From a virus (taxonomy: Duplodnaviria; Heunggongvirae; Uroviricota; Caudoviricetes): a stretch of DNA of 24,908 nucleotides. Both the position numbers and the translations under genes were made by a program. This document shows, piece after piece, positions 4,610 to 19,460 of the stretch. Under the pieces are notes generated by a model. It did not search any database. It was not told where the DNA came from and worked only from the letters and a program-made list of their open reading frames with translations. The DNA lies in the IMG/VR virus record IMGVR_UViG_2579778993_000003. One strand, 5' to 3'. The first letter of the stretch is position 1. Every line of letters starts with the position of its first letter.

Positions 4610-4616
4610 GCCCACA

Positions 4617-4850
4617 AGAAAACCCCTCCGGAGAGGGGCTAAAGCCGCGTATCTGTATCATCATGCACATGGTGCCGGGTGCCTCCCGGTGAGTTCAGCC
4701 CGGTGCCACTAAACCCGCGTCATTCTCGTTTTGATAATCAGAGATTATACCGTCACCAGTCGCCCCTCCGCTCAGGGGGATTCACCATGCGAAATTTTTT
4801 TAACAAATGCCCAGTCTGACAGGCAACTGTCAACTTACTGAATTGTGAGC
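4617..4850. repeat. Direct repeat unit A (~230 bp), degenerate copy of unit B, rich in palindromic hairpins
   Basis: Shares ordered conserved blocks with 5105-5318: aaaa(c/g)ccctccggagaggggct, gcatggtgccgggtgcctcccggtga, cccctccgc.cagggggattcaccatgc, ttttaacaaa and cagtcaac...ctgaattgtgag. The first block is a perfect 6-bp hairpin (CCCCTC cgga GAGGGG, 4623-4638) preceded by an A-run, so it is a minus-strand terminator. Confidence 0.6.
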
Positions 4851-4903: not shown

Positions 4904-5104
4904 CGGATGGGCCTGGAAGGATAGCGGTCATGTGATGCCGGTTTCCCGGTAACTCAGCACCGGTATCTGAGTCAACGTTTTCTCTACTGGGTCATTTCCG
5001 ATACGCCCTGCCTGCTGACAGGCTTTCATCACATCTGAAAATATAGCACCCTGACTGATACTGTAGTACCTAAGGTTCCAGAAACTGTGATGTATCCGGC
5101 ACAG

Positions 5105-5318
5105 AAAAGCCCCTCCGGAGAGGGGCTGGAGAGTGGCGCTATGTGCCATTGCATGGTGCCGGGTGCCTCCCGGTGAATTCAGTACCAGCACCTGAATCCG
5201 CGATTATCCCATATACCTACTCGCTGATTGCCCCTCCGCACAGGGGGATTCACCATGCCAGTTTCTTTTAACAAACTCCCCGCAAACCAGACAACAGTCA
5301 ACCGCCTGAATTGTGAGA
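5105..5318. repeat. Direct repeat unit B (~215 bp), degenerate copy of unit A
   Basis: Same conserved blocks as unit A, including the CCCCTC cgga GAGGGG hairpin (5110-5125) and the 8-bp inverted pair gcatggtg / caccatgc bracketing a variable ~110-nt core. Confidence 0.6.
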
Positions 5319-5362: not shown

Positions 5363-5439
5363 TGGCGCGTTGTACTGGATTCGAACCAGTGACCGATTGC
5401 TTAGAAGGCAATTGCTCTGTCCGGCTGAGCTAACAACGC
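5363..5439 (-). tRNA. tRNA-Arg (anticodon UCU)
   Basis: Manual cloverleaf on the minus strand: acceptor GCGTTGT/ACAACGC, D-stem GCTC/GAGC, anticodon stem ATTGC/GCAAT with loop CTTCTAA, T-arm ACTGG-TTCGAAT-CCAGT, discriminator G and encoded CCA. All stems perfect; 77 nt. Confidence 0.9.
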
Positions 5440-5452
5440 AGGATACAGATAA

Positions 5453-5529
5453 TGGACCGCCTTCGGGGACCCGAACTCCGCGCAACCAGCTTCGAAGGCT
5501 GGCGCTCTTTCCTGATGAGCTAATGGCGG
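5453..5529 (-). tRNA. Putative tRNA-Arg (anticodon UCG), slightly degenerate
   Basis: Cloverleaf fits with D-stem GCTC/GAGC, anticodon stem CCAGC/GCTGG with loop CTTCGAA, and encoded CCA. There is one mismatch in the acceptor stem (A-A), one in the T-stem (A-C), and an atypical T-loop TTCGGGT, so it may be a diverged or pseudo tRNA. Confidence 0.55.
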
Positions 5530-5536
5530 TATGTGA

Positions 5537-5612
5537 TGGTGGCCCTTGCTGGATTTGAACCAGCGACCTGGCGATTATGAGTCGCTCGCTCTCACCACTG
5601 AGCTAAAGGGCC
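5537..5612 (-). tRNA. tRNA with CAU anticodon (Met by anticodon; resembles the Ile2/lysidine-type ileX/ileZ class)
   Basis: Minus-strand sequence GGCCCTTTAGCTCAGTGGTGAGAGCGAGCGACTCATAATCGCCAGGTCGCTGGTTCAAATCCAGCAAGGGCCACCA folds as a 76-nt cloverleaf with one A-C mismatch in the anticodon stem. It closely resembles E. coli ileX as I recall it. Confidence 0.85.
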
Positions 5613-7285: not shown

Positions 7286-8107
7286 CTATCGCGTTACCCT
7301 CTTTAACTGCCGCTCCGCCCATGCCTCTTCAATGTCAAACCGAACCACCAACGTATCGTAAAAGCGTTTCACTGATTTTTTCCACGTATCAAGCGTGATA
7401 GCACTCGTCACTTTGCGTATGGCATTAAATGCCTCCGTTGATGGTAGTCTTTCACAGCCACGACCACCACAACGCTGGCAGTCTCTGATAACAGGCATAC
7501 CACGTTTTACCGACTCTTCACGATGAATGGCAACACCACGCCCACGGCAGTCTTTACAGGCAGTGGAAATCTCCCCCTTCCCTTTACATTCAGGACAAGA
7601 AACTTTCACCACCTCCCGAATTTTTTTCCATTCTTCCCAGTAAGACGGATACACACCTTTCGTACACTTTGCCCATACTGGCGGCTTGCCATCCGGATAC
7701 TGAACCTTGTTTGTAAAAACTTCGCCTTCAATAAATTTTTCCCCTCGGCAACAGGGGCACTGCTTTTTACTCGCTGCGCTGCGGGCATAATCCTCAAAAG
7801 CGTACGAAGCCATAATGCGCATCACTACCGGTTTTATTTCTGCCGGAAGTTTTCTCAACGCCGCCACACGATCGCACCGACTGAGTGCATAATCTGCCAG
7901 TAATTCTGTTGCCCGCGCCCTGTCATTCATACTGATGCCCATTTTCCCCAGGAACGCAGAAAACCCCATCTCAGCCCGATTCTGTGTCATGCCCTGCGCG
8001 GCCATCACATCAGTGATACTCAGCGCATCTTTCGACGTTGAGGCCGATGCATCAGTCAGGCCGGGGGATTTTGGGGAGTAGTATTTCGGTAAATCTTCCA
8101 GTTTCAT
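7286..8107 (-). CDS. Putative late-gene antiterminator Q (Cys-rich, zinc-finger type), 273 aa
   Basis: Directly downstream of rusA with a 4-bp ATGA overlap, and followed by a promoter plus terminator pair. Contains repeated CxxC motifs (CPCCRGEK, CPECKGKGE, CKDCRGRG, CQRCGGRGCE). Family assignment rests on synteny and motifs. Confidence 0.6.
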   Translation of the reverse strand: MKLEDLPKYYSPKSPGLTDASASTSKDALSITDVMAAQGMTQNRAEMGFSAFLGKMGISMNDRARATELLADYALSRCDRVAALRKLPAEIKPVVMRIMASYAFEDYARSAASKKQCPCCRGEKFIEGEVFTNKVQYPDGKPPVWAKCTKGVYPSYWEEWKKIREVVKVSCPECKGKGEISTACKDCRGRGVAIHREESVKRGMPVIRDCQRCGGRGCERLPSTEAFNAIRKVTSAITLDTWKKSVKRFYDTLVVRFDIEEAWAERQLKRVTR

Positions 8108-8484
8108 TTTTTGACCTGCTCTTCATGCATTATGGGGTAAATCTTCACCCCCAGACGTCCACCAGATACTGGCTGACCACGAACGATATTGATTTCATCA
8201 AACTGCTCATCGTCCATTAGCAACCCCGCATGCGTCAGCGCATCCAGCGGCGCTTTCAGAATATTGTCCAGATCACGGCGGCGCTTATCCGGTGGTTCTG
8301 CAATAATTTTTATTGCCAACCTTCCGGACAGGCTTAATTTCAGCCGCTGCTGGCGAACAATAAGCGCCACTGCCCGGCGATAACGCTCCCCGGCTTTTGA
8401 TACAAAATATGTGCTGCCACGACGACGCCAGTAAGTGTTCACCGTTGGCGGGTAAGGCAAAACAAATTCTATGCGTTCAGTCAT
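8104..8484 (-). CDS. rusA: RusA-family Holliday junction resolvase
   Basis: 126 aa; the segments LPYPPTVNTYWRRRG and DKRRRDLDNILKAPLDALTHAGLLMDDEQ match the RusA fold and catalytic Asp cluster. Typical position in a lambdoid nin region just upstream of Q. Confidence 0.85.
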   Translation of the reverse strand: MTERIEFVLPYPPTVNTYWRRRGSTYFVSKAGERYRRAVALIVRQQRLKLSLSGRLAIKIIAEPPDKRRRDLDNILKAPLDALTHAGLLMDDEQFDEINIVRGQPVSGGRLGVKIYPIMHEEQVKK

Positions 8485-9543
8485 TTATGCTTTCCACTTC
8501 AGAACACCCGAATTTCTCGCGTGCATTAAAAAACGAATCAGCAACAACAGCTGGCTGCCGTGTTTTTCTTCAAAATCTTTTACCCCGGCGTGTAGTTCGC
8601 TATGGCATTTACGGCACAGCGGAATAACAAACAAATCATCAGCCTTTGTTCCCATCCCTCCCAGTCCATGACCAATGATGTGATGCGGATCATCTGCCTG
8701 ATTGCCACACGTCATGCATTTCTGCGTTTTTACCCAGCGCGTGTATACAGGCATCTCTTCCCGTTGTGATTTCTGGCGCTGGAGATACTGAGCCGGTGAC
8801 TCGGGATCAACGGCAATGCTGACCACCGTCTTTTCCTGTGGTGGGTTCTGTTGCTGGTGGGCGTGAGGCAGCGGCGCAAGATTTTTTGTGCGCTGTTTCA
8901 GTATGCTGGTGGCGGTCTGCTCTCCCGGTATGATGTCGCTTTCACTGTACACAGAGCGAATTTTTTCCGCACGCAACCCCAGCGAACGACGTAATACCGC
9001 TTCCGGTAGCGCGTCCGCCACCTGATTGCGGACCGCCCACCAGGATAATTCAGCCAGAGATAATTCACGCTCCTGCGTACCGCTTATTGCGTGACCGATG
9101 ACGTCAATCATCCATGCTGACAGGTTTTGATGAGCAAGTTGCCCGAGTGATTCGGATGTCTGGTCACGCAGCTGGTTGTCGCAGTGCCAGCACAACACCA
9201 TTGCGCCGGTACCATAACGGTGAATGACGGTTTCGCTGTGATGATAATCGCCGTGTGGCCACTGGCAGGATTTAATATGGCGCAACAGCCAGTCAGACAA
9301 TGCACCAGCACCACCAGCAGCACGAATCACCCGTGCGTTACTGAAAAACGGCAGCAATGTTTTGTCTTCCACCAGCGGCTGGCGAGCGGCAGGAACGACC
9401 CCGGACGGCAGATTACGCATGCTTTTTGGTTCCGGCTCCACCAGTATTCTGCCGTTATGGAATGCTGACATTGATTCACGGCCTGGCTTAACGATAACCA
9501 GACCGAGTTCCGGTACCAGAACAGATCGAAGTAATACCCGCAC
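8485..9543 (-). CDS. DUF968-type prophage protein with C-terminal HNH-like zinc-finger nuclease motif (YdfU-like)
   Basis: The C-terminus CMTCGNQADDPHHIIGHGLGGMGTKADDLFVIPLCRKCHSELH has the Cys/His spacing of HNH endonucleases. The start is ambiguous: GTG at 9541-9543 has a strong SD (GGAGG), and an alternative ATG lies at 9469-9471. Confidence 0.65.
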   Translation of the reverse strand: MRVLLRSVLVPELGLVIVKPGRESMSAFHNGRILVEPEPKSMRNLPSGVVPAARQPLVEDKTLLPFFSNARVIRAAGGAGALSDWLLRHIKSCQWPHGDYHHSETVIHRYGTGAMVLCWHCDNQLRDQTSESLGQLAHQNLSAWMIDVIGHAISGTQERELSLAELSWWAVRNQVADALPEAVLRRSLGLRAEKIRSVYSESDIIPGEQTATSILKQRTKNLAPLPHAHQQQNPPQEKTVVSIAVDPESPAQYLQRQKSQREEMPVYTRWVKTQKCMTCGNQADDPHHIIGHGLGGMGTKADDLFVIPLCRKCHSELHAGVKDFEEKHGSQLLLLIRFLMHARNSGVLKWKA

Positions 9544-9544
9544 A

Positions 9545-9823
9545 TTACCTCCAGATCCGTTGCTGGAATGTGCGGGACGGACGCGCTGGCCGTTCTGAGT
9601 AAGGGAGCCTGACGGAGATTATCCAGTGACGGTAGTCGAGGCTAAGGGCTTTTTTAACCTCGCATCCGCGCCCGCGGTAACACTGAATGAGCCATTCAGC
9701 CTGTTCTTCGGTGCAGGGGTCGTGCTGATACCAGTCAGATTTGAATGCATGAGAACGCCGCCCGTGCCTGCTGGCAGGGGCGGCAGAGTTATCCGAATTG
9801 TAAAATTTGGTATCGTGCGCCAT
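9545..9823 (-). CDS. Hypothetical nin-region protein (92 aa)
   Basis: ATG at 9821-9823; the stop abuts the start of the DUF968 gene. Four Cys residues; no motif recognised. Confidence 0.4.
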   Translation of the reverse strand: MAHDTKFYNSDNSAAPASRHGRRSHAFKSDWYQHDPCTEEQAEWLIQCYRGRGCEVKKALSLDYRHWIISVRLPYSERPARPSRTFQQRIWR

Positions 9824-10090
9824 CTGTTTTCTCTGCTGGCGCAGCAGGTGCCAGTTGTTCAGGCTGACGTATGAAGTATAAATAAACTGGCTCCAGTGTA
9901 AAGCCCCACCTTAATGGAATAAAAACCAAACAACAGATTGCTGGGATAAAAATACAACGCTTATTATTAAAAGCGGTTAGATAAATTAAATTTTAATGTT
10001 ATGCAAATCTGCCAGATTAGCATAATATTTCATTTGAAAACCGCTGAAATAACAATCTTATCGGGATTAATCATATTAAGGTGAGTAAAT

Positions 10091-10177
10091 ATGGAAAACA
10101 ACAAATCTGCACATTACGCTCCTTTTTTATCTGTAATACTTTTTGTATTTTGTTGTGTATGGGCGGTATTTTTATAA
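10091..10177 (+). CDS. Candidate small hydrophobic peptide (28 aa: MENNKSAHYAPFLSVILFVFCCVWAVFL), below the ORF-track length cut-off
   Basis: ATG at 10091 preceded by AAGGTGA (10078-10084) with a 6-nt spacer. A short polar head is followed by a single hydrophobic helix-length segment, and the stop TAA (10175-10177) lies 18 nt before a strong bidirectional terminator. It is convergent with the protease gene. Confidence 0.3.
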   Translation: MENNKSAHYAPFLSVILFVFCCVWAVFL

Positions 10178-10194
10178 AACACACCCACAAATAA

Positions 10195-10224
10195 ATCAAA
10201 CCCGCTACAGCGGGTTTGATTTAT
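10195..10224. terminator. Bidirectional intrinsic terminator shared by the small plus-strand ORF and the protease/ATPase operon
   Basis: Perfect 10-bp stem TCAAACCCGC (10196-10205), loop tacag, GCGGGTTTGA (10211-10220), with T/A-rich runs on both sides. Confidence 0.65.
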
Positions 10225-10231
10225 ATAGTTG

Positions 10232-12496
10232 TTATACGGAAACTGGCACACGAGCAGGCAATGGATAGTGAGCCCAGTTATTAGCATTTAAAGCTCTTAC
10301 GCCATCAGCATAAACTTGTGTTTTTCCATCTAATGATTTTAAAGTTACTACAATAGTTACAGGTAAAGGCTCCATTAAGGCCGGTTCATTCGCTCTCAAC
10401 GTTGTTTTAGCTTGAAGAGCCCAGTTACCCGAAGTAATTCCTTTATTAAATGCCTTGCGATGAATTTTTACTGGTGACCACTTTCCACCATGCTCAATTT
10501 GAGCTCTCTCATATCCAGATTGACCGTTTTCTCCTTCCATAGGTACTTTTCCTTTTATAGTATTATTCTCAATTAAGCCAAAACTTAGCTCTACGTTCGC
10601 GCGAACATATTCACTGCCGGCATTAGGGTTCAGTGGTGGTGCATATGCAGCAGTAATTACAATCTCACCTTTAAATTTTCCATTTTGAATAAGTGCCGAT
10701 GGTATGGGATAGTTTTCCTTTCTCCACCTCACCCCAGGAACCAAGAATGTTTGGAAAATCAGAGTAAACCTATCATCACTATCATATAAGGTCTCAATAA
10801 CCTCATTAGGAATTCCCGCTCCCAAATAGCGTCTTTCACTTGGCGAGTAATCAGGAGAAGATAATTGAGCGGAATGAATTAATAATGCTTTAATCAATGA
10901 TGGTGAAACATTAAAGTCTGAATTAGTGGCTATTCTCTGCCATGTATGCGCAGCTAAACTTGCCACAATTGGAGCAGCAAAACTAGTACCAAAATTAGAG
11001 CAAAGCCTATTATCTGGCCCTACGACCTTTAAACTGCTTGCTCCTACATTCCAAGGTCTATGAACCCCACCGCCAGCATGGATTATATCTGGCTTTGGAG
11101 TAAATACAGGCCCAGGGCCACGACGAGTATATGGTGTCGGTGTTCCAATTTCACTTAAAGCATCATTAGCTTCCATATGAGAAACTGAACCAACTGTTAG
11201 TGCTCGGACTGACTCTCCAGGAGAGGAAATTAAATCAGCACCTCCAAGCGGATCAGGATTTGGCCATGTACGTATAGGTTCATCTACATAATTACCTGCA
11301 GCAACTACAAACAAAATACCAAATTTATCGCTGAGCCGATCTAACTCCATCGCAAAATCACTAAACATCTGCTCATTACATGGTCCGCCTCCCAAAGATA
11401 AATTCCAGACTTTTATATCTGGTCTTTTATTTACAGCATCTGCTAGCCTCAGAATTAAATCTGATATATAAGATCCATTTTCATCTAAAGCACAAACATC
11501 ATGGATTTTAGATTTTGTATCAGGAATCCATGGATGATTGTCATTTAAAAAATGAGCGCCTGATATCAATGAAGACACCATAGTCCCATGTTCATAACTC
11601 GTATCAGGAGGAATTACGTATGTTTCCCTACTCACTACCCAAGGAGTAATTGTTGCCGCGATGGGGCTTACCCCAGTGTCAAATACAGCAACAATGGGTA
11701 ATTCTTCTGATGGTACGGGAAAGCTATTTGTTTCAATGCCAACAGAATCACTTACACTAACCGGGAATGCTGAATATTTTGGTTCTGGAATTAACGTTCT
11801 TATACCCGGGTAATCAATGAGAATGTCTAATATATATCTATCATTTGGGGATAAATCCATTATCCTTAATAAGGGAAGACCACATTTTGGTCTAATCTCA
11901 TCATATTTAACTCCGTGTTGTTCTAATATAGAAATAACGTTTTCATAGTTGTTGTAAGTTGCATCTTCACCTGTGTACTCAAATAGTCGTACAAGGATGT
12001 TTGATGATTCAAACAAACCATCAGTGCCTCCTGGAACCTTCCTATTCTCATCCCAAGGTTCAATGCGCTCAATCGCGCTTAGATTAGCCAAAATCGCTTT
12101 AATATTCCGATGTAAAATGACTGACTCTAATACGTCAAAACAGCCGGCATGAGCAGCAACCAACATTTCATCTATTTTGGCATGACCGGCATTTTGCAAT
12201 CCAGCCTCTTGAGCAATTTTGTTCGGCCTATGCGTTTTGGCTATTCCCTGGTCTCTTAATTTGAAAACCAAAGTACCCAAGCTTCCAGGGTACTCTGAAA
12301 GTTTGGATTCTAAATAATGTTTACTGGTTGTTAAATTTCTTACTAGCCCTTGTCTATATTCGGCTGTTACATCAACCAATACCTTTGCCCCACCGCCAGC
12401 GTTTACTATTGCACCCAAGTCACTACTGGAAAAAGGGATTCTTAACATTGGGTTTGTAACTTTTGCGTTACTAAACTGTGTACCCCTTCTGCTCAT
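10232..12496 (-). CDS. Subtilisin-like serine protease (peptidase S8) with extra N- and C-terminal domains, 754 aa; protease component of an IetAS-like two-gene system
   Basis: Catalytic residues in subtilisin order: Asp in VAVFDTGVS, His in YEHGTMVSS, oxyanion Asn in VVAAGNY, Ser in GTSFAAPIVAS. ATG at 12494-12496 with a GGAG/AGGAG SD inside the 3' end of the upstream ATPase gene (26-bp overlap). A+T-rich relative to neighbouring prophage genes. Confidence 0.9.
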   Translation of the reverse strand: MSRRGTQFSNAKVTNPMLRIPFSSSDLGAIVNAGGGAKVLVDVTAEYRQGLVRNLTTSKHYLESKLSEYPGSLGTLVFKLRDQGIAKTHRPNKIAQEAGLQNAGHAKIDEMLVAAHAGCFDVLESVILHRNIKAILANLSAIERIEPWDENRKVPGGTDGLFESSNILVRLFEYTGEDATYNNYENVISILEQHGVKYDEIRPKCGLPLLRIMDLSPNDRYILDILIDYPGIRTLIPEPKYSAFPVSVSDSVGIETNSFPVPSEELPIVAVFDTGVSPIAATITPWVVSRETYVIPPDTSYEHGTMVSSLISGAHFLNDNHPWIPDTKSKIHDVCALDENGSYISDLILRLADAVNKRPDIKVWNLSLGGGPCNEQMFSDFAMELDRLSDKFGILFVVAAGNYVDEPIRTWPNPDPLGGADLISSPGESVRALTVGSVSHMEANDALSEIGTPTPYTRRGPGPVFTPKPDIIHAGGGVHRPWNVGASSLKVVGPDNRLCSNFGTSFAAPIVASLAAHTWQRIATNSDFNVSPSLIKALLIHSAQLSSPDYSPSERRYLGAGIPNEVIETLYDSDDRFTLIFQTFLVPGVRWRKENYPIPSALIQNGKFKGEIVITAAYAPPLNPNAGSEYVRANVELSFGLIENNTIKGKVPMEGENGQSGYERAQIEHGGKWSPVKIHRKAFNKGITSGNWALQAKTTLRANEPALMEPLPVTIVVTLKSLDGKTQVYADGVRALNANNWAHYPLPARVPVSV

Positions 12497-13625
12497 ATGC
12501 TCCTGACTCCTTCAGAATGTTTGAAATTACTCTTGATGTAAGTTTGTACAAATTAGCAAGAACTCTGATAGAAAATAATTTTTTATCTTTAGAACGTAAC
12601 CAACGAATTTCATCTTCGTAAGTGCTTAAATTTACACCTTCCATAAGCGATTGCGCAAGATACAAACGCCTATACAATTTATGGTGATTTATCACACTTG
12701 CACCTTCAATAACTGCATCCCTACGTGCATCCAAGCTCACCTGTTCAATTATTGCTCCGGATAATCCCTCCGATTTTCTTGATAAATCACTTAAATCTAG
12801 ATCGCTACATATCATATTCTTTAAACGATTTTTCCAAATTAACTCTCTCTGATGTATGTCAGGCAGAGGCATTGGAATTCTGAAGCTAAATCGCCTCCAG
12901 ATTGCAGGATCCAGAAGTTGCTCATGGTTAGTTGAGGCAATAATTACCGTATCCTCTGATGCCGCATCCATATTCTGCAATAGTGAAATGACAACTCGCT
13001 GAAGCTCACCTATATCTCTCTCATTACCTCTTGCTCCAGCTAAAGCATCAAATTCGTCTAAAAAAAGCACTGATGGCCTCTGCATTACATAATCGAAAAC
13101 CTGTCTAAGATTTTTGCTGGTTTGTCCCAATAAACTACTAATCAAAGTATCGCAACGCACTGTAAGAAGTGGAAAATCTAAGCGGGTAGCGATGTACTTA
13201 GATAACATAGTCTTACCTGTTCCTGGCTTTCCATACACGAGCATACGACTCGGCAATGCTGCATCAGCTTTAACAAACTCATCATAACGTTGAACATTAG
13301 TGATAAACTCTTCAACACGGGTACTGATTGCTGCAGGCAGAAAAATCTCTGAACTGTCTAATTTAGGATAACTGACATCAACAGTGTTGAGTCGACTATC
13401 AATATCTACCGGTAATGAGCCCAGAGATATCCCACCTCCAGCCCTTTGAGCTCCTGCCAACGCCTGGGGAGCTCTAAGCAACCTTTCTCTTATCATTCTG
13501 GCTTGCTTGACCTCCCCTTTTTGTTCGAGCTTATCTGCCAGCAACCCAGCATAATTACTAGCCATCGAAGCATTTGCCTTTGTTGCACCTTCAATGATTT
13601 TTAACACTTCTGATAAATAATCCAT
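12471..13625 (-). CDS. Classic AAA-family ATPase, 384 aa; ATPase component of an IetAS-like two-gene system
   Basis: Walker A GKPGTGKT, Walker B VLFLDEFD, and a second-region-of-homology-like segment ASTNHEQLLDPAIWRRFSF with sensor Asn and Arg fingers. ATG at 13623-13625 preceded by GGGAG with a 6-nt spacer, after an AT-rich ~190-bp leader. Confidence 0.9.
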   Translation of the reverse strand: MDYLSEVLKIIEGATKANASMASNYAGLLADKLEQKGEVKQARMIRERLLRAPQALAGAQRAGGGISLGSLPVDIDSRLNTVDVSYPKLDSSEIFLPAAISTRVEEFITNVQRYDEFVKADAALPSRMLVYGKPGTGKTMLSKYIATRLDFPLLTVRCDTLISSLLGQTSKNLRQVFDYVMQRPSVLFLDEFDALAGARGNERDIGELQRVVISLLQNMDAASEDTVIIASTNHEQLLDPAIWRRFSFRIPMPLPDIHQRELIWKNRLKNMICSDLDLSDLSRKSEGLSGAIIEQVSLDARRDAVIEGASVINHHKLYRRLYLAQSLMEGVNLSTYEDEIRWLRSKDKKLFSIRVLANLYKLTSRVISNILKESGAYEQKGYTV

Positions 13626-13818
13626 TCAACACTCCCACAACAAAAAGCCACAGCAATCAAAAAATGAGCACACAGAATCAAAATACTCTCTAATCGTAAC
13701 GCATTTTGAGATTTTTGATACGTTTTTTTGGGATTATGTAACGCCAAATGGTCATTTTGTGTCAGAAAAATAAATCTTAGTACCGAGAATATGTAGCTTC
13801 CATCCTTCATCGTTCTAT

Positions 13819-14250
13819 TCATCCCTGATCTCCAAGCCTCTCTCGAAAACCATTCTGATAAAACGCCAGCACACGCTGCATAACTTCGCTCTTCCGGCAC
13901 TCGCGACAGATTATGTTCAGACGCCTGTCGTAGCGGCGTATTTCTCCGTCTGGTAATGACCAGATAAGGTCCGGATCAACCACAGATGGTTTCTTCACCT
14001 TTGCCCTGGATAGTTTTTTGCGGGCATTTTGCCAGTCCTTACGAGCCTGTTCAGACGGGAATAACCCGTAACCAGAGTTGTATACATCGCCACTGGCAAC
14101 CAGCTCTCTGGCGAGAACGCTCATCAGATATCTTGTCGCACCTGTCTTGGCTTCCAGTTGCCGTAACGTCTCGCGCCCACTCCGGCGTACTAGCTCAACA
14201 ACCTGCCCTTTAATTTTTTCCCGCTCTTCTTGTGTAAATACTTTTGCCAT
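13819..14250 (-). CDS. Hypothetical prophage protein (143 aa from the ATG at 14248-14250)
   Basis: Strong SD GGAGG 5 nt upstream of the ATG at 14250; the track ORF starts 5 codons earlier. Basic protein with a CxxC pair near the C-terminus; no family recognised. Confidence 0.55.
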   Translation of the reverse strand: MAKVFTQEEREKIKGQVVELVRRSGRETLRQLEAKTGATRYLMSVLARELVASGDVYNSGYGLFPSEQARKDWQNARKKLSRAKVKKPSVVDPDLIWSLPDGEIRRYDRRLNIICRECRKSEVMQRVLAFYQNGFRERLGDQG

Positions 14251-14265
14251 AAGCGCCTCCGGCAA

Positions 14266-15027
14266 TCACTTTTCCGATACAACACGGCGGGAAGAATCAG
14301 TAATCTGTCGAACAATATCCCGGTGCTTGTTCAGCTCCCGCAGCGCGGCGCAGACTCGCTCCCACTTCTGGACATGATTTTTCGCCCGACGCAGTTCGCG
14401 GTTTGCCATATGCAGTGATGGTAAAACCAGGTCATCCGCTCGCGTTTCAGTAAACGATGGCAGCGACTGCACAATGTCCGCCACAGTTTCTGTTTTAATA
14501 TCTTCCTGTGTTGCAGCCTCCTGTACTGGTAACGCAACACCTGCGGTATGAGGAAAGGCCTTACCATCAGTTTCCGCTACCGATGCTGCTTTCGGCTCTG
14601 CTGGTAAATTATCGCCCGGTATGCAGTAACGAAATTTACCGCCCTGATTTACGCGAATCAGACGACCTTTGCTGATTGCCATTGCCAGCGTTGAAGCCAC
14701 TTTGCGTGATGTGGTACCAAACAATGTAGCCAGCTCATCAGCCATTTGTGGTCCTCGTTGTTCAATCGTCGCGGTTAAATCGCACTCTGAGATTTTCGCT
14801 ACTGTTGCTGTGGTGATTTCTTCCGGCAGTTCTGCCTGCGCTGGCTGTTCCTGCTGAACGTTGTTATCAGCCACACGCCAGGTGTACGCGCTTTTATCAA
14901 CAAAACCAGCCTTTTTCAGTTCCCATAGTTCGTTCAGCACTTCTTCACGACTGATATCAAGTCGCGCAGCAAGTTCTATGGATGTGGCTTTTCCCATTGC
15001 TTTCAGTGCGTCAAAAACAGTCTCCAT
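14266..15027 (-). CDS. Hypothetical prophage protein with N-terminal winged-helix-like segment (253 aa from the ATG at 15025-15027)
   Basis: Internal ATG preceded by GGGAGA; N-terminus [43 protein letters not shown] resembles a small wHTH. An acidic low-complexity middle is followed by a basic C-terminus. Located immediately downstream of the DnaC-like gene. Confidence 0.5.
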
Positions 15028-15049: not shown

Positions 15050-15796
15050 TTACTTCGCAATTCCTGGCTGGACGACATTCGGACGCCAGCTCTCCCAGTT
15101 AAAATTCACCCATAGCCCGCCGTTCATGGTCATGCGATCCATAATCCGCTCGCCGAGCAATGTTTTCATGGCCTCATAGTTCAGGTTTGTCAGCATCCCC
15201 ACGCTGCGCATCGACGCTGTCCGGCGATCAACAATCTGGTGCAGTACCACCTGCTCGTTTTTCGTCTCGCGCTGAATGCCAATTTCATCAAGAACCAGCA
15301 GATCCACTTCGCACAGTTCCCGCAAAAATTTTTCGCCTGACTGCCCATCGTCATAGCTGGCGTGGAGGGCACTCATAACATCAGCCACGGTAACCACAAT
15401 CACTGTCTGACCGTCTTTCAGCAGGCGATTCCCGATAGCTGCTGCTAAGTGGTTCTTCCCGGTACCAGGTTTTCCGCTAAACGCGAAATTTGTGCATCCG
15501 GTCATCAGTTCATCAGCGATAGATTTCGCCTGGCTCAACGCGTATCGCTGACCGTCGTTCTGCACCTGGTAATTCGCAAACGAGCATTTACGGTGCAACG
15601 GCTGGATGCCTGAGCGATTCAGAATTTTTTCCACCCGCAACTGGCGATTCAGGCGGTTGATCTCCTCGCTACGTTTCTGGCCTTCAGCAAGTTGCCACTC
15701 GTGCCACTCCGCTACCGTTCTGAATGGGGCGGTTACATGTGGCGGAGCCAGTCTTCGGATACGTTCAAGAACGCCGCCTGCCGCAATGTTTTTCAT
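15050..15796 (-). CDS. DnaC-like replicative helicase loader (IstB-like AAA+ ATPase)
   Basis: 248 aa, colinear with E. coli DnaC as I recall it: N-terminal MKN..., Walker [19 protein letters not shown], Walker [10 protein letters not shown], and the C-terminal LTNLNYEAM...LGERIMDRM block. Confidence 0.9.
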
Positions 15797-17213: not shown

Positions 17214-17478
17214 GAATCAAGCTCCTAGAAAGTGGTTGTGTTAACGTTTTGGTATCTTCCAGCTCGGGCCAAATATTCATCCAATCAAAAGGCCTTAGTT
17301 GCTGACGTGTAACTTCACCATTACTGGCTCGCTCAATAAGGACACATAACGATGCCCCTAACACTTGACCTTTACTCAATGCCTTTCTTAGATAACCGAT
17401 GCTGGTACCACACTCGCATGCAAACATACGCTGTTCATCTGACGAAAGAGAATTGAGAAATATTCTTAATTCTTCCAT
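17197..17478 (-). CDS. Cro/YdaS-like HTH regulator, 93 aa
   Basis: ATG at 17476-17478 with an AAGGAG SD 5 nt upstream. HTH-like segment ECGTSIGYLRKALSKGQ. Divergent from the repressor gene across a 100-bp operator-containing region. Confidence 0.65.
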   Translation of the reverse strand: MEELRIFLNSLSSDEQRMFACECGTSIGYLRKALSKGQVLGASLCVLIERASNGEVTRQQLRPFDWMNIWPELEDTKTLTQPLSRSLIHENQA

Positions 17479-17505
17479 AGCTACTCCTTAGTAAACACAG
17501 CAAAG

Positions 17506-17543
17506 AATACCCACAGGTAAACAAAAGTCAATACCCACAGGTT
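17506..17543. promoter_or_regulatory. Two direct copies of a 13-bp operator-like site (AATACCCACAGGT) in the divergent repressor/cro promoter region
   Basis: Copies at 17506-17518 and 17531-17543, centres 25 bp apart. A candidate leaderless repressor promoter (-10 TATTAT 17567-17572, -35-like TTTACC 17545-17550) places the transcription start at or next to the repressor ATG (17579). Confidence 0.5.
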
Positions 17544-17578
17544 GTTTACCTTGCGGTAATCGCATCTATTATTTACCT

Positions 17579-17998
17579 ATGGACAAATATGAATTTAGAC
17601 GACAGCAACTCATCAAAATTCGTGATGAGAAATGCGATGGTAAAGCGGTTAACGTGGCCAGAAAGATCGGGCGCGAGCCTTCTTATGTATCAAGAATGTT
17701 GTACCCAGAGGGGAAAAAGGGAAAAAAACGGATCGCTGATGATATGGTGGAGATTATCGAAGAGTCCTTTGGGTTACCCCGGGGATGGATGGATGGTATC
17801 GTTTCATCATCAACGAACACAGCCTCCAGTTATGAAACAAGGGTTCTAACGCCACGACAACGTATTTTTTTAGATCTCTTAGACGAACTGCCAGAAAGTG
17901 AAGCGGATAAATTATTAAAAACTCTTGAAGAGAAAAAACAGTATTACAATATGATCTACGAAGAAATCCGTAAAAAGAAAGCACAAAACGCATCATAG
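17579..17998 (+). CDS. Prophage repressor (RacR-like HTH protein), 139 aa
   Basis: HTH-like segment AVNVARKIGREPSYVSRML. No SD upstream of the ATG, consistent with a leaderless mRNA. Flanked on both sides by related palindromic sites. Confidence 0.65.
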   Translation: MDKYEFRRQQLIKIRDEKCDGKAVNVARKIGREPSYVSRMLYPEGKKGKKRIADDMVEIIEESFGLPRGWMDGIVSSSTNTASSYETRVLTPRQRIFLDLLDELPESEADKLLKTLEEKKQYYNMIYEEIRKKKAQNAS

Positions 17999-18040
17999 CT
18001 CACCAAACAACTAGTCACCAGTTAAGACACCGCAAAAATT

Positions 18041-18077
18041 TACCCATGGGTATTTACTTTTTAAATACCTATGGGTA
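18041..18077. promoter_or_regulatory. Second operator cluster: perfect palindrome TACCCATGGGTA plus near-palindrome ATACCTATGGGTAT
   Basis: Sites at 18041-18052 and 18064-18077 share the half-site TACCCA with the sites at 17506-17543. They lie between the repressor gene and the next plus-strand operon. Confidence 0.5.
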
Positions 18078-18263
18078 TCCTTCTTTTCATACCAACCCAC
18101 CCCGCCCCACAGAATGCAGGGCAATACTTCGAGTTACCAGGCAGTGGTCAGGGGTTAAGTAGCCAGCCCGAGGCGTAAGAACATGACGGCAGGGTTCAAC
18201 TTTAATAACTATGCAGCAGGTTTTTGTTCCGCTACCCCGGCGTTAAGGGGAAATGAGGTCAAC

Positions 18264-18416
18264 ATGGATATGCTCAATCTTGGCAACAACGAATCTCTGG
18301 TATGTGGCGTGTTCCCCAACCAGGACGGCACGTTTACCGCGATGACGTATACCAGAAGCAAAACGTTTAAAACTGAAGCTGGCGCGCGTCGCTGGTTAAC
18401 CAGAAACACTGACTGA
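18264..18416 (+). CDS. Small prophage protein (50 aa), YdaF/DUF1391-like
   Basis: ATG at 18264 preceded by GAGG with a 5-nt spacer. Product MDMLNLGNNESLVCGVFPNQDGTFTAMTYTRSKTFKTEAGARRWLTRNTD. Family assignment is from memory of Rac small proteins and is uncertain. Confidence 0.45.
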   Translation: MDMLNLGNNESLVCGVFPNQDGTFTAMTYTRSKTFKTEAGARRWLTRNTD

Positions 18417-18427
18417 TGAGGTTGACG

Positions 18428-18829
18428 ATGGAATTTAAAGATTTACCAGTACCATTCCAGGAAATGGCATCGAATGTGGTTCGCTCTCAACTGGCGACTC
18501 TTGACCTGAGTACCGTAGAAAAAGAAACCATCGATACTATATCCGGTAACGTGCGTCGTGCCTTTATAGGTCTGTATGAAGAGAAGCGCCTATTCGGCGG
18601 ACAGAATTCGCCTGAAAACAAGAATCAAGCAAATGATGAGAAGCTGAAACACATTATCGCCTTACTTTTGGAAGACGCAAAACGTCTACAGCAACTGGAA
18701 CCAAATGCAGGCACAGAGGCCCGCATTTGGATTGCCATGAAATCACTCAAATGTGAAAGCAGTGATTATTTCAAAACAACAATTAAAACTACTCAACTTT
18801 CGGGAGAGCTACTGAAGAAATTGCCATAA
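18428..18829 (+). CDS. Hypothetical protein (about 133 aa)
   Basis: ATG at 18428 preceded by GAGG; the track ORF starts at 18416, overlapping the previous stop. No motif recognised. Confidence 0.45.
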   Translation: MEFKDLPVPFQEMASNVVRSQLATLDLSTVEKETIDTISGNVRRAFIGLYEEKRLFGGQNSPENKNQANDEKLKHIIALLLEDAKRLQQLEPNAGTEARIWIAMKSLKCESSDYFKTTIKTTQLSGELLKKLP

Positions 18830-19067
18830 GAGCATGGTCTTTCTCTTGTTCTGCAAGATGAGCATTAATACCTGGTATGGTTTTTTCAAATTTATCTATC
18901 TGTTGAATAACAACTTCGCGGTATACGTTTGTTTTTGTACCACCAAGCGCAGCCGTTAATGCAGAAAGCATATTTAGTATCATATCAGTGCGATATGAAA
19001 GAATCCTGATAGCTTCATCTTGTTTTTCAATAATAGATTGCAGGGCCTCAATTTGCTTTTTATCCAT
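18789..19067 (-). CDS. Hypothetical helical/coiled-coil-like protein (about 92 aa)
   Basis: ATG at 19065-19067 preceded by GAGGGTGA. Its 3' end overlaps the convergent 18428-18829 gene by about 40 bp, so one of the two may be spurious. Confidence 0.4.
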   Translation of the reverse strand: MDKKQIEALQSIIEKQDEAIRILSYRTDMILNMLSALTAALGGTKTNVYREVVIQQIDKFEKTIPGINAHLAEQEKDHALMAISSVALPKVE

Positions 19068-19099
19068 TTCACCCTCCTGAGGGTTGGTAATTAAGGAGT

Positions 19100-19460
19100 T
19101 CTCCACGGGTCAGGTGGAGTGCGTGCGCCGGACACGGGTGAACATCCGGCACTGACAGTTTACTGAAAGGATATGTCCCTGAAAAGTCAGGGCATAACGC
19201 GAAAGCGCACGGCGAAATTGGTCTCTCTGTACGGTGTCGTTAAATTTAGTTCGACCGTGCGCTTCCGGTTGTGGCAATCCGCGAAATGGTGCGGCGGTAA
19301 GTATGGCGGGGGTATTCCTTCCCCCGTTGAGGACACCGGGTTGTCAGGTTGACCATACGCTTAAGTGACAACCCCGCTGCAACGCCCTCTGTTATCAATT
19401 TTCTGGTGACGTTTGGCGGTATCAGTTTTACTCCGTGACTGCTCTGCCGCCCTTTTTAAA
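19100..19460. other. GC-rich, hairpin-dense non-coding region (candidate structured RNA or DNA site)
   Basis: No convincing ORF. Several perfect stems: GCCGGA/TCCGGC nested inside GTCAG/CTGAC (19111-19156), CCCTGA aaag TCAGGG (~19177-19194), GCGCACGG...CCGTGCGC enclosing ~45 nt (~19205-19262), CGGGGG tattcctt CCCCCG (~19307-19326), and GGGTTGTCA-19 nt-TGACAACCC (~19338-19374). Confidence 0.3.

Follow-up and report, generated by a model that had tools for sequence, protein, structure and literature searches.

The DNA that we analysed (hereafter the window) is a 24,908-nucleotide stretch of a Caudoviricetes virus record (IMGVR_UViG_2579778993_000003). Within it lie two adjacent minus-strand genes forming a single operon, the gene for an AAA+ ATPase preceding that for a subtilisin-like peptidase, and the gene order around this operon reads DnaC-like, DUF1627, DUF977, cargo, orf92, DUF968/HNH, RusA, Q (Table 1). 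An earlier note on this DNA, made from the sequence and its open reading frames, had placed a cargo island where the replication module meets the nin module, and this gene order agrees with that placement.

Table 1. Features of the cargo region and its flanks (positions are those of the window).
Feature	Coordinates	Strand	Properties
orf92 (phrog_1212, no assigned function)	9545..9823	-	First gene of nin-like block (orf92, DUF968/HNH, RusA, Q)
A+T-rich conserved backbone module, unannotated	9840..10216		G+C 0.342; holds 28-aa ORF
28-aa ORF, putative membrane peptide	10091-10177	+	Inside the 9840-10216 module
Perfect hairpin, possible bidirectional intrinsic terminator	10191..10224		15-16 nt arms, U-rich tails on both strands
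ietS (iteS), cytoplasmic S8 subtilisin-like peptidase, 754 aa	10232..12496	-	PADLOC IetS (PDLC02197) 6.3e-300; Pfam Peptidase_S8 5.6e-26
ietA (iteA), classic-clade AAA+ ATPase, 384 aa	12471..13625	-	PADLOC IetA (PDLC02196) 8.9e-143; Pfam AAA 2.6e-30
A+T-rich untranslated ietA leader, 193 nt	13626..13818	-	G+C 0.347
Cargo-specific 3' end of DUF977 gene	13819..13854	-	Last 11 codons NGFRERLGDQG + stop
Conserved part of DUF977 / Ren-like gene, forming the right flank in the prophage backbone	13855..14250	-	Pfam DUF977 2e-28; PHROG 142 'Ren-like exclusion protein' 2.3e-46

Both proteins exceeded the cut-offs of equivalog profiles: IetA scored 526.6 bits against NCBIfam NF042959 (IteA_antiphage; cut-off 510), aligning over residues 1-367 of 367, and IetS scored 1039.4 bits against NF042956 (cut-off 900). 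A 100% identical locus in strain 102651 is named iteA/iteS in RefSeq. Judged by its sequence, the operon is the IetAS (IteAS) anti-phage/toxin-antitoxin system, which is already known; this identity is absent from the earlier note. The IetA motifs comprise Walker A (GKPGTGK138T), Walker B (D190-E191), sensor-1 (N233) and R244/R245, and the catalytic residues of IetS (D273, H303, N402 and S505) are intact and invariant across 35 homologues, so that a competent ATPase and a competent protease are predicted. When aligned to p97 D1/D2, IetA has Ser-Leu-Leu-Gly at the position of the aromatic pore loop of p97 D2 (Met-Trp-Phe-Gly), a replacement that makes a simple substrate-threading model uncertain. 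An AF2 model of IetS contains the subtilase fold, accompanied by an N-terminal region of ~250 amino acids with no recognised fold and a C-terminal beta-sandwich. The first 26 nt of ietS lie within the end of ietA, ietS has a Shine-Dalgarno sequence of its own, and the two genes are translationally coupled.

An alignment of five cassettes, drawn from five genera, revealed two invariant blocks in the ietA leader, CGTATCAA and CGTTACGAT, and a conserved core at 13693-13728 that reads AAAAAA-CGTATCAAAAAT-N9-GCGTTACGAT; between E. coli and Citrobacter, conservation of the leader begins at 13747. We infer from this conservation that the core is a candidate promoter or operator. A sigma-70 consensus scan of the leader returned no promoter match, which makes expression from the repressed prophage uncertain; ietAS may be expressed by read-through from the replication operon. 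A promoter picked by eye (GTTACA-16-TATCAA, 8/12) was dropped, as it was conserved between E. coli and Citrobacter only. A 73-codon ORF also runs over the leader (13822 to 13601, minus strand; 'kinase (fragment)' in ON470595), and its frame is open in Citrobacter too. We rejected it as a gene because each of the 9 codons that differ in the conserved core changes the amino acid, and because its frame is interrupted by indels in Leclercia and Klebsiella. The segment keeps its earlier description as a long, non-coding, A+T-rich leader.

At the other end of the operon, the hairpin begins 8 nt past the ietS stop and is common to ietS on the minus strand and the 28-aa ORF on the plus strand, with folding energies of -22.5 kcal/mol on the plus strand (z -6.6) and -26 on the minus strand (z -5.8). 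The perfect bidirectional terminator that the earlier note had described stands as to its hairpin and tails, with its extent given here as 10191-10224 (10195-10224 in that note). The hairpin core, AAACCCGC-N4-GCGGGTTT, recurs after hokD in one relative (L002) and after ietS in a Citrobacter locus (L013), and since this core is common to the neighbouring module it is ambiguous whether the terminator belongs to the cassette. Neither an Rfam scan of the window at gathering thresholds nor an E-value scan of 9780-10300 placed any family in the island; matches were limited to sub-threshold ones over the hairpin.

The region stands out by its composition. G+C was 34-40% across 9840-13854 against ~50% elsewhere in the window, and 500-nt windows spanning 9751-14000 had values of 0.36-0.42, compared with 0.49-0.57 on both sides. 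For the cassette proper, which as delimited below occupies 10217-13854, G+C was 0.397, whereas the lowest value among the 3638-nt windows that avoid it was 0.448 (n=1399, mean 0.496). GC3 was 0.268 for IetS and 0.325 for IetA, compared with 0.44-0.62 in the seven genes next to them, from orf92 to YdaT. The distance of synonymous codon usage from the pooled other genes was 0.183 for IetS and 0.147 for IetA, whereas all remaining genes lay between 0.07 and 0.135. Four rare codons (AGA, AGG, ATA and CTA) occurred at 61-68 per 1000 in the ietAS genes, compared with 22, and the dinucleotide signature distance of the cassette was 0.112, against a maximum of 0.059 over 140 other windows of equal length. 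The cassette is thus foreign in composition, an outlier by each of these measures. These measurements uphold the impression, gained by eye in the earlier note, that the ATPase/protease segment is more A+T-rich than its flanks, and far from being indistinguishable from their neighbours, the two genes differ strongly from them in both G+C and codon usage. The enterobacterial IetAS clade as a whole has G+C of 0.40-0.42 and GC3 of 0.26-0.29 across five genera, at 16-26% protein divergence. A+T-richness is therefore a stable trait of the clade in five host genera and does not date the acquisition.

Comparison with prophages that carry other cargo placed both ends of the cassette. On the right, homology stops at the DUF977 codons ...VLAFYQ (blastn borders 13855/13856 against L002, L004 and L005). 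Beyond that point the C-terminal tails of DUF977 vary with the cargo: the tail in the window is the same in the IetAS carriers L008 and L009, and relatives end in GDVRFY, GNVRYFRRY or GNFQEAVL before the stop codon. This last stretch of the DUF977 gene (13819-13854) moves together with the IetAS cassette. On the left, homology with hokD-type prophages stops at 10216, which sets the junction at 10216/10217. The IetAS-specific cassette consequently extends from a left junction in the terminator hairpin to a right junction within the last 12 codons of DUF977. The single island proposed earlier, at 9824-13818, has to be redrawn accordingly: the cassette within it is real, its right border moves by composition and comparison to 13854/13855 inside the DUF977 3' end, and 9840-10216 forms a conserved module distinct from it. 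This module, which carries the annotation 'none', was found in 758 of 5426 complete E. coli genomes and is common to hokD-carrying prophages; its 28-aa peptide had no match in the protein collection or the literature that we searched. Positions 9839-9844 are a recurrent mosaic breakpoint, and only in this backbone does orf92 form the left flank.

The cassette was present in 78 of the 5426 complete E. coli genomes, always as a single copy, at least 99.5% identical and in the same slot; one sequenced phage also had it, and no plasmid did. DUF977 homologues occurred at 7427 places in E. coli, of which the cassette occupied about 1%. Instead of being present at this position in all related prophages, which the earlier note had named as grounds for abandoning its view, IetAS was thus found at 78 of ~7400 DUF977-adjacent places, with other cargo in the relatives that we compared. 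In the homologous slots that we sampled, this cargo was usually hokD with a variable gene; across relatives, it was hokD with genes for QueH, an alpha/beta hydrolase, AbiH, Paa or DUF7167, or else genes for DUF5677 or FRG. Related IetAS pairs (74-84% identity) lie at the same post-replication position in prophages of Citrobacter, Leclercia and Klebsiella, where they are also A+T-rich, as read from the contigs that encode these homologues. The closest relatives are other enterobacteria, all equally A+T-rich, and none of them stands out as the donor of the cassette.

These data bear on whether low G+C is simply a bias intrinsic to native phage genes, and hence uninformative about horizontal transfer. 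The persistence of low G+C and GC3 in five genera does point to an old, maintained property and not a fresh import, but the ~1% slot occupancy, the near-identity across diverged backbones and the alternative cargos indicate mobility whatever the composition. Intrinsic bias as the full explanation, which we find barely credible, is refuted by the presence/absence data, and it survives as a caveat on dating the transfer. The earlier proposal that the segment is horizontally acquired cargo, a moron, draws support from presence/absence, distinct composition and a terminator of ambiguous ownership; a strict moron would also have a promoter of its own, for which the leader core is a candidate.

At least two prophage backbones carry the cassette: one with orf92/DUF968 as left neighbour, in which orf92, the module and ietS are joined (7 genomes only), and that of the Rac-like carriers, in which DUF1367 takes this place. 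Between carriers, the cassette differs by ~0.4% and the flanks by 5-13%, with near-identity reaching variable distances into the flanks. This pattern indicates that a nearly invariant cassette has spread across diverged backbones, evidently through recombination in the flanks. Insertion by a transposable or site-specific element would likewise produce sharp borders that are the same in all carriers, but we regard it as very improbable: the cassette ends have no terminal inverted repeats, flanking direct repeats or target-site duplications, no transposase or integrase gene lies inside or beside the cassette, and the 5426 genomes contain no 3.6-kb unit at unrelated sites with a duplicated target. 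Moreover, other, unrelated cargos are bounded by the same two points, the ...FYQ codon in DUF977 and the terminator hairpin, and the extent of near-identity into the flanks varies among carriers. Positions 10217-13854 are thus very probably a horizontally exchanged IetAS cassette, carried in its post-ren slot by an E. coli prophage of the lambdoid (Rac/Qin) type that is integrated beside ompW. More tentatively, the post-DUF977 position might be a so far undescribed exchange hotspot of Rac/Qin-type prophages, in which toxin-based modules (hokD, AbiH and IetAS) swap between fixed borders formed by the ...FYQ codons and the hairpin, with the conserved 28-aa gene adjoining, and the leader core might be an IetAS operator for autoregulation, as in classical toxin-antitoxin systems.

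What the cassette does for its carrier can be proposed by analogy. IetAS of pTiC58 consists of a protease toxin and an ATPase antitoxin, anti-phage activity requires the protease (PMC13069673), and active-site mutations abolish IetAS function according to the literature. A B. cereus homologue acts by abortive infection and is triggered by SPbeta YosG (bioRxiv 10.1101/2022.08.27.505566), and the E. coli system alone gave limited protection only (10.1101/2022.08.21.504612). On the strength of this literature, IetS would be a toxin restrained by IetA, and the pair would act against phages by abortive infection, a role reported for homologues other than this exact pair or not comparable with it. 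In a lysogen, the core conserved in the leader would drive ietAS, and the shared hairpin would end the transcript; upon infection, a phage trigger would free or redirect proteolysis by IetS, which would halt the cell before the phage cycle is completed and thereby protect sister lysogens and hence the prophage. Being toxin-antitoxin-like, the pair may also stabilise the prophage in place of hokD. Alternatively, IetAS might be mainly an addiction module that stabilises the prophage by post-segregational killing, a functional substitute for hokD and not a defence system. The first description of IetAS, according to the citations in PMC13069673 and PMC8562856, was of a toxin-antitoxin system that stabilises a plasmid, and hokD was missing from all four of the IetAS-carrying prophages that we inspected, whereas prophages with other cargo usually carry it beside the same 9840-10216 module. 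We nevertheless consider a mainly addictive role rather unlikely, as anti-phage activity of IetAS homologues has been reported from experiments (PMC13069673; 10.1101/2022.08.27.505566) and the defence and addiction roles are compatible.

As the genes belong to a named system and are annotated as such in an identical RefSeq locus, they carry little weight as a discovery; the locus serves as a worked example of a cargo island correctly recognised from sequence alone. What the comparison adds is junctions precise to the base, a single defence cassette in at least two backbones and a slot used in four enterobacterial genera. A compact natural copy in an E. coli prophage, with a conserved leader element and an apparent replacement of hokD, could also aid the study of how IetAS is controlled.

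Among known systems, IetAS/IteAS itself (Gao et al. 2020 'ietAS'; NF042959, NF042956) has the same overlapping, co-oriented pair of an ATPase gene followed by an S8 peptidase gene, with full-length matches and no structural difference; what this analysis describes in addition is the post-ren lambdoid setting and the exact junctions. IetA/IetS of Agrobacterium pTiC58 (Yamamoto et al. 2009, as cited in PMC13069673 and PMC8562856) shares the architecture on which we base the likeness, and presumably the same toxin/antitoxin logic, but is plasmid-borne and, by those citations, known for plasmid stability and incompatibility. A tblastn search of IetS against 72,556 plasmids (E<=1e-40) returned 5 records only, none of them from Agrobacterium, which makes the pTiC58 pair at best a distant subfamily. 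The ietHAS system (Liu-DS4; PMC13069673) has the IetA and IetS core in common but includes an extra, essential SNF2-type helicase gene; here DUF977 lies upstream and the terminator downstream, with no such gene. TA132/133 of Mycoplasma mycoides (PMC8562856) likewise couples a toxic S8 protease to an AAA ATPase and shows such a pair at work as a chromosomal toxin-antitoxin module; the likeness is one of protein classes, in a different phylum and with no phage context. The hokD cargo of Qin/Rac-type prophages shares the slot, the left module and the hairpin and is also toxin-based, but hokD encodes a 51-aa membrane toxin of type I, under RNA control, that is unrelated to IetAS in sequence and mechanism. 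The defence-cargo hotspot of another temperate phage family likewise has a fixed position at which unrelated defence cargos swap between conserved flanks; the slot described here lies at a different phage position, and its cargos are mixed: IetAS and AbiH are defence genes, hokD a toxin gene, Paa an adhesin gene and QueH a metabolic one.

Base composition sets the segment carrying the ATPase/protease pair apart from the rest of the window. A sliding profile of the whole window placed G+C at 0.36–0.42 across ~9750–14000 and at 0.49–0.57 on either side, and the IetAS-specific segment (the cassette) had a G+C of 0.397, with all other windows of equal length at 0.448 or above (n = 1399). GC3 was 0.268 in ietS and 0.325 in ietA, compared with 0.44–0.62 in seven adjacent genes, and rare codons occurred at 61–68 per 1000 versus 22. 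The synonymous codon usage of the two genes was likewise an outlier against the window's other genes, as was the cassette's dinucleotide signature (0.112; maximum elsewhere, 0.059). By all these measures the island is clearly distinct from its neighbours, as the earlier note had judged by eye, and the leader upstream of ietA is as A+T-rich as it had described (G+C 0.347). A second, weaker dip (0.40–0.46) covers the immunity region, where the cro-like, repressor-like and small neighbouring genes have a G+C of 0.41–0.42.

Genes and other elements of the window, those of the cassette region in gene order.
Feature	Coordinates	Strand	Remark
DnaC/IstB-like loader	15050-15796	-	
DUF1627 gene	14266-15027	-	
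DUF977 gene	13819-14250	-	'Ren-like exclusion protein' in PHROGs
ietA leader	13626-13818	-	
Conserved leader core	13693-13728	-	
IetA	12471-13625	-	384-aa AAA+ ATPase
IetS	10232-12496	-	754-aa S8 peptidase
Cassette	10217-13854		
Hairpin	10191-10224		follows ietS
28-aa ORF	10091-10177	+	
A+T-rich non-coding stretch			between hairpin and 92-aa ORF
92-aa ORF	9545-9823	-	phrog_1212
DUF968/HNH, RusA, antiterminator Q		-	follow the 92-aa ORF
STnc100 copies	4610-4819; 5097-5287	-	161 and 136 bits
tRNA cluster	5363-5612	-	
DicF antisense RNA	19401-19452	+	76.7 bits
Second G+C dip (over the immunity region)	17250-19250		

The genes of this region are all encoded on the minus strand. Profile matches identify the ATPase as IetA and the peptidase as IetS, both in PADLOC (E = 8.9e-143 and 6.3e-300) and against NCBIfam equivalogs (526.6 bits for a cut-off of 510, and 1039.4 bits for a cut-off of 900). 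Positions 9000–14800 are 100% identical to E. coli strain 102651, in which RefSeq labels the genes iteA and iteS and where xis and int, at the end of the prophage, adjoin ompW. IetA has Walker A (K138), Walker B (D190/E191) and sensor-1 (N233) motifs as well as R244/R245, and aligns best with the D1 and D2 domains of p97/Cdc48. Because its pore loop is non-aromatic (SLLG, at the position of MWFG in p97 D2), a classical threading role is uncertain. A search of the PDB returned no IetAS structure.

Comparison with relatives gave the island sharp ends and moved both of them, from the proposed 9824 and 13818 to 10217 and 13854. On the right, blastn against three relatives (E. coli FUJ80154 and two others with different cargo) placed the border at 13855: DUF977 proteins match through VLAFYQ, after which their tails vary with the cargo, ending in NGFRERLGDQG beside IetAS and in GDVRFY, GNVRYFRRY or GNFQEAVL beside other cargos. 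The left border, 10216/10217, falls within the hairpin, and among the matches listed homology breaks at exactly that base in more than 20 relatives. This hairpin, previously read as a bidirectional terminator at 10195–10224, is indeed a perfect palindrome followed by a U-rich tail on either strand; its folding energy is -22.5 kcal/mol on one strand and -26 kcal/mol on the other. The 377 nt at 9840–10216 (G+C 0.342) form a separate module, carried by 758 of the 5426 E. coli genomes. It usually adjoins hokD in other prophages and has nothing annotated in the listed records; 9839–9844 is a recurrent mosaic breakpoint.

The module contains a 28-aa ORF, MENNKSAHYAPFLSVILFVFCCVWAVFL, preceded by the Shine-Dalgarno sequence AAGGTGAG and hydrophobic in its C-terminal half. 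Convergent with ietS, it ends 13 nt ahead of the shared hairpin. Its length is constant in 10 loci at identities down to 71% (phage vB_EcoS-666R9), and differences favour third positions in several comparisons (five synonymous and two non-synonymous against FUJ80154). It had no match in the protein collection, NCBIfam, PHROGs, Rfam or the literature searched.

Among 5426 complete E. coli genomes, 78 carry the cassette. Each of them has one chromosomal copy, located beside DUF977 and with an identity of at least 99.5%. One sequenced phage, vB_EcoS-683R6, also has it; a search of plasmids found none. DUF977 homologues occupy 7427 places in 4165 genomes, and at the homologous slots of the relatives examined the cargo is mostly hokD plus a variable gene: QueH, rem together with an alpha/beta hydrolase, AbiH (an abortive-infection gene interrupted by IS1; 8015–9700 of the FUJ80154 locus), the Paa adhesin or DUF7167 genes. 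DUF5677 or FRG-domain genes also occur there. It is plausible that IetAS doubles as a prophage addiction module replacing hokD, which would be compatible with a role in defence.

Between carriers the cassette differs by ~0.4% and the flanking replication genes by 5–13%, and the near-identical block reaches into DUF977 in only some carriers. The left neighbour in Rac-like carriers is DUF1367/DUF1364/DUF1133, as opposed to the 92-aa ORF/DUF968/RusA here, and the window's own left junction was found in only seven genomes. Neither terminal repeats nor target duplications were found at the cassette's ends, and no recombinase gene lies in it or next to it. Recombination in flanking homology is the usual mode of lambdoid mosaicism, and the simplest reading is that the cassette moved in this way.

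Outside E. coli, IetS relatives are found at 74–84% identity in Citrobacter, Morganella, Leclercia and Klebsiella, at ~56% in Pseudomonas and Aeromonas, and at ~52–53% in Burkholderia. In Citrobacter, Leclercia and Klebsiella, IetAS directly follows prophage replication genes, ahead of DinI and the nin/Q block; in Morganella morganii (L016 3860–7265; 77% identity) it occupies a different position, at a prophage edge between host icd and the integrase. The pairs of these four genera have a G+C of 0.40–0.42 and a GC3 of 0.26–0.29, with flanks at 0.48–0.54, and the Pseudomonas pair is likewise lower than its flanks. The IetAS clade has thus kept its A+T-richness, which does not point to a recent import from a low-G+C donor. 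The interpretation as horizontally acquired cargo holds, with corrected borders and the system named IetAS.

A consensus scan of the ietA leader found no promoter. Alignment of five cassettes from five genera revealed two invariant blocks, CGTATCAA(A/G)AAT (13722–13711) and CGTTACGAT (13701–13693), preceded by an A-tract; sequence further upstream is unrelated, and that downstream contains indels. The resulting core (CGTATCAAAAAT plus CGTTACGAT, the latter including the small palindrome CGT-T-ACG) is the best candidate for a possible promoter or operator. A 73-codon ORF across the leader (13601–13822, minus strand), whose ATGA overlaps the DUF977 stop codon and which phage record ON470595 labels 'kinase (fragment)', was not supported as coding and was rejected.

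Elsewhere in the window, three tRNA genes cluster between Q and the lysis genes, flanked by two copies of the STnc100 sRNA family. Two of them are Arg-tct and Arg-tcg, and the third has a CAT anticodon (Met by ARAGORN, Ile by RefSeq). DicF lies upstream of the dicB and ydfD homologues that RefSeq annotates in the identical locus.

According to the literature, IetAS was discovered as a toxin-antitoxin system that stabilises plasmids, in which the protease is the toxin and the ATPase the antitoxin; it also protects against phages, and this requires protease activity (PMC13069673). A Bacillus cereus homologue acts by abortive infection triggered by SPbeta YosG, with escape mutations mapping to replication-related genes (10.1101/2022.08.27.505566), and a related ATPase/subtilase pair in Mycoplasma is a functional toxin-antitoxin system (PMC8562856). 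With moderate confidence, we propose that IetA would hold IetS back in the lysogen until a phage product upset this restraint, whereupon freed IetS would cut cellular or phage proteins and abort the infection. Public records already annotate the locus as such, and IetAS is a described family; some novelty attaches only to the slot's fixed junctions, to the leader element conserved between genera and to the 28-aa ORF, which lacks annotation.
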